Of a stretch of DNA of 64,000 nucleotides, positions 38,801 through 44,800 are shown piece by piece. Position 1 is the first letter of the stretch, and every line of letters begins with the position of its first letter. Made by a program: the position numbers and the translations under genes. This stretch comes from Saccostrea echinata. Lineage: Eukaryota. The stretch is from positions 2,604,001 to 2,668,000 of the forward strand of contig NW_026889750.1 in NCBI RefSeq assembly GCF_033153115.1, given 5' to 3'. Below the pieces are notes generated by a model. That model searched no databases, was not told the DNA's origin, and saw only the letters and a program-made list of their open reading frames with translations.

Positions 38801-41800
38801 ACTTCCTGGAATCAAGCTCTCACTCGTGTTTATGATTTATTTTACAGATATCAATCTTACTTCTCTGTATGCTTTATAGTTCAGCAAGCGAGAATAGGCA
38901 GTTGTTCCAGCAATGATAAGCTTTGGACGGAAAAGATGGGCAGTTTCCCTGAGTTTGTCGTAGTCAATGTAACCTGTTTCGGGCTGTAAAGAGAGAGAAG
39001 ACATTACAGTATATGTATTTTAAGGTGTTATTTATTTCTTAATATTGCAATTAGAAAATTTTTTAGCAGTTGATTAGAATCATTAGATTCTAAGGTATCA
39101 AAATTTAGCTTTATCCGGAGCCTGGACTTACATTTAATCTGTATGGCATAGATTCGAAGAACAGTGAGGTAGCAGAAATCCTTTTCGTGTCAGTCATGAA
39201 CCCATGGGTCAAACTAAGAGAACACAACATTATACATGTAGATGGTATTACTAATGGAATTAAGGCTCCTTGACCCTCTGATAAGAAAGATAACTCATAC
39301 TGTGCTAAATTATTATTATTCCATCATATAACATCTGTTGCACTAATACGCGAGTTTCGAGATTGTAACTCTCCTACGATAGAGGCGCAAAAAGTATCTA
39401 TATCAGCATGGAAGTGGGACAGGTTGTTAATGTTTACAAACTTGCATAAATAAAAGAACGATTGCTATGGCTTTTAAAATTCATTTGATGTTATAAAAAG
39501 ATGATAATGCTAAGAAGTGATCATTTTCATAATTTTGTAAAGCTCTTCTATATATATTTACAAAATTTATTTTCAGTTAGGATACTTGAAAACGAAAGAA
39601 CCATCATAGTCTTTATTAAAAAAAAAATAATTCTTTGCACAAACCTTTTCTATAAAGTTATAGGGCTCTTAGAAGTTATTATAAGGTAAAGAGTCATTTA
39701 GAATGCCAACGTACTATGATCAGGTGCGTGTGTATTTATTAGAGATCCATGATATACATCTATTCCCTCGTTGGATGTTTTATCCACTGAAATTTTCTTT
39801 TGTTCCGATTTTTATTTTCTTTTGTTCCGTTTTTTTTCGTAGAAAAAATTGACGCCTTTACGTTAATTCCGTAATAAGTATATCCCAACAGTCAGTTATG
39901 ACAGACCGGTATATCGATGATTTAATGTATCCAATAGATAAATAACTGTCCCACCTGCCTGCTTACGCGGAAACAAAACTCCCCTCTGTAGCGAAAGAGC
40001 GCACCAAGGGAGATAATCTCGAAACTTGTGTATTCTAATATTCTAATTATGAATATGGTGTCTTTTGAGAAGTGAAAATCTTAACATATCATTTCAAATA
40101 CATGCATGTACATTCATGGTAAAAATTACATTCATCTAAAGTAAGTAGTTGATCATGACATGCCTATGTCATGTGTCAAAAAAAATTCTATTATTAGCAA
40201 ATAATGTTTTAAAACATATACTGAAAAGAATCTTACTGTCCACCATCAGGTAGATCCAGACCCATGATTCTGTCGTGGGGCTTCAGTAGAGCAGTGAAAG
40301 CCTCAAAGTTAGCTGGACTTCCGGAATAAGGCTGGACGTTGACTCCCCACAGATGTGGATCCAGACGGAATGCCTCCAGAGCTCTTGTCTGACACAGACT
40401 CTCTATCTTATCAATAAATAAATTTCCACCATAATACCTACAACATAAAGTTTTATTACAGTTTAGCAGATGGTTGAAAAGATATGTTGTACAGAATCTA
40501 TATTACAGCTAGACAATATTCGTTAAGTACATGTATATACATGCACTTTACACACACTTATTTTCCCAGCACTTTCACTTCTGTTATTGTCATGGTAATG
40601 AAGGCAAAACCATGACTGTAATATTCACTGTGTAGAAATGGACTAGGGTAAAGTGCGTTACCCTAGTTCAAGATGGCGACAGGCAAATACCCTTCGATTA
40701 TTTTGCTCTCAGTGTACGCATTAAACAGGCTTACAATATGTAATGGATGGTTTTATTTTAATTATTTTAAATAGAAGTATGTAGCTATTGCAAAAATTTT
40801 GCATGATCTGTGCTGGTTAAAGCCAAATTAAGGGTAGAAAATTTGATCAAGATTAGGGTAACGCAAATTACGACTAGGGTAAAGATTTTGTGACCTTTTT
40901 GAGTGATTAGGGTAAATCCTGTTTCAGGGTTTAAAAAATGCTATTTAAGCAGACTTGAAACGCACTCTGCCACTAAATTCATCATTCATTGCGCTAAAAA
41001 CTATGTTTTTGAAAAATTCTCAGTGCGCTGACAATTTCTGGAAGAGCACAGTGTCCTAATTTTGTTCAAATCAGTTTAGGTTTCTGTTTATAAAACAAAC
41101 TGAGTCTTGAAAACAGTGTTCTGTTGATTTAGATACGGCGAAAAACTTTTCAAATATCTACAGATCAATTTTAATCAATTTAAAAAGTATCATCAATGAC
41201 ATGTGAAAAAAATGAACAGAAATCACACCCCAAATTAAATCCAATAAAACAATACAAAATATGAGCAGAGCAAACATGGACCTCTGCAAAGTGAAAACAG
41301 AGGTGGGATAAGGTGCCATGGAGGAATGAACATACCCTGTCCACCGGTAAAACCTGCCGTGTACTCTTTGTCATGGTCAGGTAAGTAAAAAATGGCCTAA
41401 CAAAAAAGTCAGTACACATTCGACTTAACGATAGATTCTGTTAATTTCGCAAACCATGTCATTGTATCAAACATGGAATTTGTGAAATGTCGACTTTAAA
41501 CGAGATGGTTGATATCTTGTGTCATCAACTTATGTGTATACTCTCTCTCTCTCTCTCTTATTTTTTTGTATTTAGATTTGCATATTATACAGAAAATGTT
41601 ATTTAACTAGCACTTTTACGCTTTATTCTAGGTTGAGAAAAACGGGCAAAATAAACTTTGCTGTTCCTTTTGAGAAAACTTTGGTAAAGCATTTTTCAAG
41701 AGTAAGATAAATAGATTAAACTGAGCTTAGATTCAGAAAACTTGTGCAAGATTCATAAAAATTGCACCTAAGTACTTAAAATATTCTTAACTCATAAAAA

Positions 41801-44800
41801 AAAAAAACAGTTGGTATTCAAGCATTCAATAGATTATTCTTAGAAAATCAGAACACTTACATTCAATCTTTTTTGCAACGCATAGAAAGTCTTTCCGAAT
41901 AAAAAGTGCGCTCTTTTGTGATGGAGGTGTTTAGTTCGACTACTATATTACATCATATTTGTCAAAATCATTTTGTAAAAGATACTGATAGGGCTATGTC
42001 CTCATCATTGCACATTTGTCAATACATCTATATGTTTCGTTTTGTTGACAGATTTATGAGATTTATCAAGGTTTGATATCTTCACAATTTACATTATTAT
42101 ACTTTAAAACAAAATCCGACACTTAATTGTTTCCATGTTTGCTATCTAGTGTATAAAACAGTCTCTTGCTGTGACCTCCAGTTTAACAATCAGATATATT
42201 GATGACGTTTTGTCAATAAACATTCAAGCAATGATTTGTTATGTCCCATTAAACTAAAAAGACATTGATGGTAAACTAAAACCAAAGCTTAAAAGTTTAT
42301 GTTGACTCTTCTTTCATCAACTTCCCCTTATTTGTGTAGCAGTATATCATTTTTCCTGCATATAGGGTTTACTTCGTCGGTGGATTCGATAAGCAAGAGC
42401 ATGTTTTCGTACGAACAATATCTAAAACGAGGAAGACTGTTGACGAATAAGTTGTTGACACAATGGTATCAACAATTTCGTTTAAAAGCCAACACTTCGC
42501 AAATTCTCTGGTCAATGCAATGATCTTGTTAGCAAATATATTATGTTGTTAGCTCGAATGTTGACTAATGTCTTTCATATACATTGTTAGTTCATTATTT
42601 TCTTAGTGAATTGTGAACACATTTTCCGTTTATCAAATTACAACGAAGGATACATGGCGGAGGTGACCAATCGAAAGATGTTGCCTACTCCCAATGGCAC
42701 CTGATCTACCACTGATGTTTTCCGAGTCCTTGTGTGCTCAGTTCACAATTTGTATTGTTTAATTGGACTTTAAGCATGAATACTGTTTGTTATTTTCGCA
42801 TTTCAGTTGATAAAAGTTTATTTCAATTACCCGTTATGCGGATTTAACTCGGTCAACATTCCGTCACTGTTGAGTGCCACCAGATGCAAATTAGACAAGT
42901 TGATACGTCATTTTCGATGATTTCGCTCAAAGTAGGGATTAAAGGATGCAACGTCGATATAGATTCATACAGGAAACAGTACTTAAAGTTAAATCAAATA
43001 AATTAATTACATCATTTATACATGTATATTTATTTAACAATATAATAATACATGTACATGAAATGGAAAATATAACGTTCATAATAAGAATAATATTTTG
43101 TATGAAAATTGTGGTTATTAAAAAAATAGCAACCGGTATGATGTCTTCGTGGAAGCAACAGTTCTTGAACACGTTCGAGAAAACCTTTTCCAACTATATT
43201 AATTGTATAAAGCAGTTAAAAAATAAAAATCGTGCAATATCAGGTTGTAGAATAAATAACTTTACCCTAGTCTCGAAAAAACTTTACCCTAATCGTAAAT
43301 AAATAGTTCAGAAACTTTACCCTAATCTGCAGCAAAACTTTGACGCGCATTTTCTTTTTAATTACGCTAAAGTTGAATACAATCTTCATGCAAGCATGTA
43401 AAACTTAAGCTGCCCGACAGATTGGTGCAAAATAAAGTAAAACTTTTAACCAGAAATCACCATATTTTTACGAGAAAATTTGAAGCGTTTTTGCCTATCG
43501 CCATCTTGGACTAGGGTAACGCACTTTACCCTAGTCCGTTTCTACACAGTGATATTGTAGTGAGAGTGAATTGAATAATAAAATTAATGAATAATGACAC
43601 AGACAGGACTTCATGAGCTTGAGTTTTTCTGCTTTAAAATGAGAAAATAACCATAATTTAAATCAAAATAGTGTATTTAATAAAGCAATAAAAATGACTA
43701 AGTTTTAGGTCAGTAATTTCTAGACATGAAGACTTACCTAGCACCTGGATAACCTTCAGAGTATTTGTTTGTTAGACAAGATCCTAGAGCCTCTATAACA
43801 GCCCGACTTGCAAAATTCTACAATCAGAAAAATTTTGACAACTTTAGTATTTTTATGCTTCAACACATCAATTAGTGATGTGTTGCTAGAGATTTACAAG
43901 CATATGTTTTGTCAATTTTTAGCTTACATAAAGATAATTTGTGGGCCAAGCAGCCCAGTAGCATAAGTGTCAACTTTTAGTTAAAATGACTGTTTAATGT
44001 AGCAGATTGTGTTGTGCTCTTGAACAAGTTGACTTTCTGTCTGATATAATTGTAAGGTTTATTTCATAATATTAACCATGTAAAGTGAGTTACAGTTTCC
44101 AAAATTCCCTTGAGGAAGTCATACAAGGTAGTGCAGGTATAATTATTCTACTTCCCCTAAATGATCTTTATATTAATTAACAAAGCAATTATCATATTTA
44201 TTTGTAAATATCAAAGATCAGGCCAACGAAAATTTTAATGTGTGACAAAACTATGTCACCTGAAAAAATGAAATTAATTAAAAGAATTTAAAAGAATATG
44301 CAATTAAATTAAGGCTCTACATTCACTACATAATGAACTGTGCTGCATGCAGCATATGTGTTCTGTAGAGATAGACTGTCGTTTTCTTTAGGACTAGAAT
44401 GGCCTATACCTACACTATATATATTTTTTTTCTCTCAAATTATTCAGGTGATATAGACACCTTTATTATTTTTTTTACCTTCAACATATCAATTGTACAT
44501 AGCTAGAGATTTACAAGCACATGTTTTGTAAATTTTTAGCTTACATAAAGATTATTTGTGGGCTAAGCAGCCCAGTAGCATAAAGACTTTTAGTTCAAAT
44601 GATGTGACAAGTTGTGTTGTGCTCTTGAATAAGTTGACTTTTTGCCTGCTTTCAACTTCTTTTCTACTTTGGTGATTTTTTCTTAACATTAGATCCAACT
44701 TTTCAAATTTGGAATATAAAGATTCACTGTATTAGCATTCCCACTATAAATATTAAAATAATTTCTCTAAGATCTATATATATATATATTTATGTTCCTT

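Follow-up and report, generated by a model that had tools for sequence, protein, structure and literature searches.

The window analysed here, by which is meant the whole stretch of 64,000 nucleotides, comes from Saccostrea echinata (contig NW_026889750.1, positions 2,604,001 to 2,668,000) and carries at 40626–43551 a gene-less transposable element of 2,926 bp. Its host is an SHMT gene on the minus strand, in one of whose introns it is inserted; the first coding exon seen of this gene best matches the mitochondrial SHMT2. Two coding exons were seen upstream of the insertion, and the intron is number 2 or 3. An earlier interpretation made from the letters alone (the sequence-only reading) had the element in intron 3, mobilised by a Transib or RAG-like (RAGL) transposase. 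The genomic copy with matching ends, L068, is predicted to encode a P-element-type protein instead. The features of the locus are as follows.

40621–40625: left target-site duplication, ATATT
40626–40695, plus strand: left terminal inverted repeat (TIR), 70 bp, begins CACTGTGTAGAA, 39/40 bases identical to L068
43482–43551, minus strand: right TIR, 40/40 bases identical to L068
43552–43556: right target-site duplication, ATATT
40643–40666: inverted pair of the CTAGGGTAA motif within the left TIR (CTAGGGTAA..TTACCCTAG palindrome)
40669–40678, plus strand: CAAGATGGCG word, starting 36 bases past the heptamer and pointing inward at both ends
40853–40915, plus strand: three subterminal (C/T)TAGGGTAA motifs of the left end, at element positions 228, 249 and 282
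43262–43325, minus strand: three subterminal (C/T)TAGGGTAA motifs of the right end, 227, 260 and 282 bp from that end
40626–41165, plus strand: left end homologous to L068 1–601 (69%), extending up to where the transposase reading frame begins
43090–43551, minus strand: right end homologous to L068 6905–7371 (74%)
41564–41712, plus strand: 149 bp left over from the boundary between intron 1 and exon 2 in the parent's transposase gene, 72% identical to L068
41185–41535 (approximate): passenger piece from a common, unrelated repeat
42255–42825: second passenger repeat piece, partly inverted relative to the first
43737–43817 (approximate), minus strand: SHMT2-like host exon upstream of the insertion
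40237–40434, minus strand: SHMT2-like host exon downstream of the insertion, which spliced contigs of runs X1 and X2 match with no difference

The element and its copies

TIRs of about 70 bp beginning CACTGTG, an exact ATATT duplication, a hairpin within each TIR and CAAGATGGCG 36 bp after the heptamer had all been described from the sequence alone, and all are present. The 70-bp ends are complementary at 65 of 70 positions and both begin CACTGTGTAGAA (CACTGTG); the fold of the CTAGGGTAA..TTACCCTAG palindrome has a z score of −3.18, with 1 of 200 shuffles equally good. Rather than forming a folded structure, the inverted pair more likely provides two sites for protein binding. The subterminal (C/T)TAGGGTAA 9-mers are further copies of this TIR-internal motif, three per end and 227–282 bp inward. 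CAAGATGGCG, which we take to be a YY1-like word, is a possible promoter element.

Target-site duplications of 2, 3 and 4 bp were said to be excluded. For the window copy by itself this does not hold, a 3-bp TAT duplication with TCAC ends fitting it once the boundary is shifted outward by one base; the other copies reject TAT. Since the base before the CAC terminus is not T in 12 of 30 left ends, the boundary was set at CAC and the 3-bp alternative dropped. As had been stated, the element contains no transposase gene, but the exon 2 remnant survives, and it is present in many family copies (tblastn). For the second passenger piece, a presumed likeness to a retroelement tail found no match in Pfam.

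A genome search for the left end yielded 144 candidates, of which 40 were scored; an exact 28-base end pattern occurs at 53 ends in the genome. The genome-wide tabulation of duplication lengths, which the sequence-only reading had proposed, revealed an exact 5-bp duplication in 20 of 39 paired copies (15/31, 4/7 and the window copy), making this the commonest length. Among the first 31 pairs there were 15 exact 5-bp duplications, three of 6 bp, one of 7 bp and one of 4 bp, and 11 copies had none, six of these being one mismatch short of 5 bp. The 8-bp duplication of P was found in none of the 39, the longest being the single 7-bp case. The duplications are AT-rich (11% GC over the 16 sites tabulated).

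The window copy differs from 10 near-full-length relatives by 7.8–15.5% substitutions (an 11th, mis-oriented, was dropped), and these values indicate a copy of middling age, for which "fairly recent" was too strong. Among the matches listed, an empty-site allele had no holder above a share of 0.10 and no holder in RNA, and a joint across the element was absent from the contigs of four runs, again among the matches listed.

Coding relatives and the predicted protein

L068 (G000:C16:13758246-13765616) is a 7,371-bp element with a frame of 1,047 amino acids. No other close coding copy was found; the next among the 26 matches of a protein search of the genome show 37–41% identity. Its homology to the window element extends 540 bp from the left end and 460 bp from the right, and the (C/T)TAGGGTAA ladder of its left end (228, 250 and 283) has a spacing equal to that of the window element. 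The opposite strand carries convergent C2H2 zinc-finger frames, which a contig of run X10 joins across two GT-AG introns; this contig cannot show the start of the gene. The earlier description of a non-autonomous element of the cut-and-paste type, having CAC ends, a 5-bp duplication and a transposase encoded elsewhere, is correct. Judged from these comparisons, L068 is the surviving coding copy of a two-gene transposon from which the window element, now without genes and with internal deletions, descends. A second coding member of the lineage, L136 (C16:13810253), lies about 45 kb from L068.

An AlphaFold model of the L068 frame (predicted local distance difference test, pLDDT, 88.4) matches the P structure 6p5a with a Z score of 22.2 (root-mean-square deviation, rmsd, 2.6; 252 residues aligned) and RAG1 with 8.6. 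A sister protein, modelled with a pLDDT of 86.5, gives scores of 30.1 for 6p5a (rmsd 2.7; 317 aligned), 10.1 for ProtoRAG, 9.9 for RAG and 9.4 for Hermes, the last three kinds ranging from 8.4 to 10.1 over both models. Foldseek agrees with the P-type match. Over a separate block of 200 residues, lambda-type exonucleases match both models at Z scores of 13–15 (13–14 for L068). The prediction for the L068 protein is a transposase of the P-element type whose first two catalytic aspartates are separated by an inserted lambda-exonuclease (YqaJ) domain. The sister model has its first D on a strand at 28–37, next a helical stalk and then the nuclease, with the sheet resuming at 518; the second D is at 579, the DxxH at 967–970 and the last E at 1130. 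There the nuclease domain interrupts the RNase H sheet after its first strand and before its second, as part of an insertion of about 480 amino acids (stalk and exonuclease domain) between the first and second D, and about 380 further residues precede the DxxH. A SAP-like motif in the second insertion is without Pfam support.

Pfam recognised YqaJ in 18/18 aligned relatives and the P RNase H domain (PF21787) in 8/18 rows at E≤1 (best 5.4e-6); the L068 frame has no match to PF12940, the profile used for RAG1L. The lineage profile matches lambda exonuclease in PDB, while profile A1 gave no useful match there. In profile-profile comparison with 45 canonical P proteins the DxxH and last E align (E=4.7e-5, probability 68%), as does the second D (E=7e-4). 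Conservation of residues was counted in an alignment of 104 sequences (A2). The DDE site is kept as D34 in 72/72 rows, D579 in 100/103, D967 and H970 each in 99/99 and E1130 in 92/94, and the nuclease site as D326 in 102/104, E351 in 100/104 and K353 in 102/104. All eight residues of both sites are kept in 54 of the 63 rows that span both. Also conserved are a W (86/87), an R (84/87) and two S residues (84/89 and 101/104), which we take to correspond to the 5'-phosphate pocket of lambda exonuclease.

No THAP domain was detected in 28 long proteins at E≤0.001 or in 18 at E≤1, some N-terminal exons possibly being missing. The residues of P that contact guanosine triphosphate (GTP) are K385, K400, V401, S409, F443, D444, N447 and D528 (PMC7776569). 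By sequence alignment about two of these eight are kept and one is changed conservatively: S409 is kept in 81/99, F443 is Y or F in 85/98, N447 is replaced by D, the position of D528 is mostly L, and the others are variable.

Ten of the related loci in this genome were fetched, and at nine of them the gene, together with a convergent C2H2 frame, is enclosed by inverted ends of the locus's own; such ends were absent at the tenth (C54). Together with L068 these loci make up eight families, seven of which begin CAC and one CAA, and in four of them unbroken frames of 1,346–1,454 amino acids indicate apparently intact copies. Among 10 whole elements, seven have exact 5-bp duplications, one has 6 bp, one 7 bp and one none. 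Two sister families were tabulated further and have 5-bp duplications in 8/12 and 14/17 copies, the remainder being 4 or 6 bp. The first of these ratios belongs to the family of L132 and L219–L228, which has the ends CACAGTG/CACAGTA, the former being the exact recombination heptamer; by its termini it is a near-perfect mimic of Transib. Outside this genome, 1,049 clusters (50% identity) match at E<1e-30. Twenty representatives were looked up, and the four named ones are from Owenia fusiformis (two), Batillaria attramentaria and Branchiostoma belcheri, that is, annelid, gastropod and amphioxus records, labelled as unnamed, hypothetical or "YqaJ domain".

Several further observations were made on these families. 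Of seven families checked, three (those of L068, L133 and L138) have an AAnATGGC word, presumably also YY1-like, 44–55 bp inward of the ends; it possibly serves both convergent genes as an inward promoter element. L134, L135 and L141 are three near-identical copies of one family with ends of about 500 bp (97–99% alike); one is unbroken, one has a stop and one an in-frame deletion which removes the nuclease block. A canonical P/THAP9-type transposase frame is also present (L152, G000:C51:6930667; E=1.5e-14 to 6p5a), so that both kinds coexist in the genome.

Proposed mechanism and alternative explanations

That the window element descends from an L068-type element, and that the protein of the latter has a P-type fold, are held jointly with great confidence. 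The best explanation overall, which we regard as very probable, is that the element is a deleted descendant of a P-type two-gene transposon, the inserted nuclease of which likely processes the non-joined strand of each end. The C2H2 protein, replacing the missing THAP domain of P, would bind the repeated TAGGGTAA sites and bring the transposase to both ends. The DDE site would then cut the 3' ends and join them 5 bp apart in AT-rich DNA. The inserted nuclease, borne on its stalk, would cut or chew back the 5' strand to leave single-stranded 3' ends, in place of the staggered cut of P. GTP would probably not be used as in P, because most of its contacts seem not to be kept. Recruitment by the C2H2 protein we put at even chances, and the same holds for the dispensing with GTP; processing of the 5' strand by the nuclease falls slightly short of that. 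Lambda exonuclease produces 3' single strands. The ends of P carry 17-nucleotide 3' single strands from a staggered cut, the mechanism of which is given as unknown (PMC7776569). These two facts suggested the nuclease step.

Several points weigh against this explanation. L068 is damaged (it has an in-frame stop at its positions 3129–3131, and for intron 1 no splice donor in phase was seen), and inside the ends it is only 69–74% like the window element; because of this the actual mobiliser would be a relative of L068 which is now lost or unassembled. No contig covers the transposase gene of L068, which is evidence neither way. The profile comparisons with canonical P are modest (E-values as above, at best 4.7e-5 and 7e-4), the first-D block remains unaligned in them, and the whole profile is not significant against a single P protein (probability 2%), as was also the case with a single RAG1L sequence. 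The GTP-contact residues were placed through sequence alignment alone. Among the 39 paired copies, 14 have no exact duplication of at least 4 bp (seven of them are one mismatch from 5 bp) and five have duplications of 4, 6 or 7 bp, four pairs are duplicates of a single insertion, and L068 itself is flanked by 7 bp. Finally, the nuclease could instead have a role in repair, defence or target processing.

A different transposase for the window element can be sought in two directions. CAC ends and 5-bp duplications had been taken to define Transib and RAGL transposons, of which the element would be a non-autonomous passenger, and a suitable source does exist. A PF12940 search gave a RAG1L family with five matches among six candidates, and two RAG1L-RAG2L elements (L074–L076, G000:C5 ~330486-339058, and L077–L079, C8) are 99.08% alike over 8.6 kb, with an unbroken RAG1L frame of 1,011 amino acids and a convergent kelch-PHD RAG2L frame of 448. 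Flanking the C8 copy is the 5-bp duplication CGTTT; the element is a candidate for recent activity. Its ends, CACTATCAAAC, are close to the protostome RAGL consensus CACTWMCAAAC (PMC7204232), but match those of the window element at only 6 of 17 bases, and no homology to the window element's ends was found near the RAG1L loci; on both counts RAGL was rejected as the mobilising partner. In addition, the duplications of the family are 11% GC against the preference of Transib for GC-rich targets (PMC1131882), and L068, the longer copy with matching ends, in which the sequence-only reading would look for a RAG1 core or Transib transposase, encodes the predicted P-fold protein. Passage by a Transib or RAGL enzyme is thus very improbable. 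The partner is predicted to belong to another superfamily, as the sequence-only reading had allowed for, although to P rather than to CACTA or Chapaev, and CAC ends with a 5-bp duplication are not diagnostic of Transib, the P-type lineage having the same signature. L068 might also be a chimera, in which a P-like gene was captured between the ends of another transposase; it is single-copy and broken and has a 7-bp duplication. The same two-gene layout within own inverted ends at 9/10 related loci, CAC termini in 7/8 families (CAA in one) and exact 5-bp duplications in 7/10 whole elements leave this scenario barely credible.

The main competing explanation keeps the same parentage and concerns the exonuclease, which would be an accessory, dispensable for excision and integration, acting on the donor-site break, in single-strand annealing repair or on competing DNA, with the DDE site cutting both strands as in Drosophila P. 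Canonical P works without a second nuclease (PMC7776569), and lambda-type nucleases of unknown function were acquired separately by ISL2EU and KolobokE (PMC4482050, PMC9587614). An accessory domain would be less expected at its modelled position, where it splits the RNase H sheet between strands one and two, and less expected to be kept together with the DDE site in 54/63 rows; duplication length, THAP and apparently GTP contacts changed along with the domain. TIR-only excision scars of the P style, searched for by exact pattern, numbered none in the family of the window element, none in the CAAGGGG family and one in the CACAGT family, a weak blank at these copy numbers which does not decide the matter. 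The lone CACAGT match has no flanking duplication and was taken as chance. An accessory role is a real possibility, which we nevertheless consider less likely than not.

A further reading, which we hold to be less likely than not, is that of a widespread and so far undescribed sister lineage of P among animal DNA transposons. Its DDE site would serve the transferred strand and its inserted lambda-type nuclease the other one; it would do without GTP and be guided by its own C2H2 protein. The lineage would have arrived by convergence at features thought to mark that of RAG (CAC ends, a 5-bp duplication and two convergent genes), and would represent, in a single chain, a eukaryotic counterpart of TnsA/TnsB of Tn7. 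Gene-less invertebrate elements filed under Transib or RAG by CAC and 5 bp need a transposase, one P-type family having the exact CACAGTG heptamer. Some thousand database clusters that bear only the label "YqaJ domain protein" or no name would represent transposases. The cutting of the second strand by P and the role of YqaJ in ISL2EU are both stated to be unknown (PMC7776569, PMC4482050), and a natural fusion with separable active sites, with apparently intact copies, makes both testable.

Window surroundings and comparison with known systems

The GC content of the window is about 33%, and there is a run of 145 N at 18979–19123. Tandem arrays are located at 5476–6815 (period 156 bp), 27297–28704 (138–146 bp), 37071–37528 (72 bp) and 61276–62499 (166 bp), and an open frame of 213 amino acids with a basic N-terminus at 49925–50566 (plus strand). 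A third, broken RAG1L-RAG2L copy (L080–L085, G000:C33:22790000-22830000) is interrupted by a long insertion whose frames are presumably Maverick/Polinton-like (polymerase, ATPase, integrase, capsid-like).

No description of a P-type transposase with a YqaJ or lambda-exonuclease domain was found in the literature searched; Repbase, Dfam, subscription reviews and supplements lay outside that search and may already hold such families. The accessible text of a survey of bivalve transposons makes no mention of YqaJ and reports one Transib frame (PMC10294476).

With the P superfamily (Drosophila P, PDB 6p5a/6pe2, and the THAP9 type) the lineage shares, by prediction, the split RNase H fold including the helical insertion of P type (Z 22–30), as well as the order D, D, DxxH, E (the D/CxxH signature), short TIRs with internal repeated sites, and deleted non-autonomous copies. 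It differs in the insertion of about 480 amino acids between the first and second D, in lacking THAP by Pfam, in duplications mostly of 5 bp rather than the 8 bp of P, in that most GTP contacts, by alignment, seem not to be kept, and in its second, convergent C2H2 gene. CAC ends, the 5-bp duplication and two convergent genes are held in common with Transib and RAGL (ProtoRAG, protostome RAGL), whereas the transposase matches RAG1 at a Z score of only 8.6–10 as against 22–30 for P, the partner gene is C2H2 and not kelch-PHD, the targets are AT-rich, and the ends lack the AAA at positions 8–10 of the protostome consensus. KolobokE likewise joins a lambda-exonuclease-like nuclease to a transposase of the C/DxxH group, but with the nuclease lying downstream of its transposase domain instead of between the first and second D, and its TTAA duplication and RR ends are not encountered here. 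ISL2EU (PHIS) also has two genes and a YqaJ nuclease of unknown function, which is however a separate protein, accompanied by an AT target, GG ends and a THAP-DDE transposase of the PIF/IS5 kind (PMC4482050). In the present lineage YqaJ is fused in one frame, with CA ends and a 5-bp duplication. The division of labour proposed here is that of bacterial Tn7. There the PD-(D/E)xK nuclease TnsA acts on the non-transferred strand and the DDE enzyme TnsB on the 3' ends, with a 5-bp duplication; TnsB is of an unrelated DDE family, and the likeness is one of analogy only.

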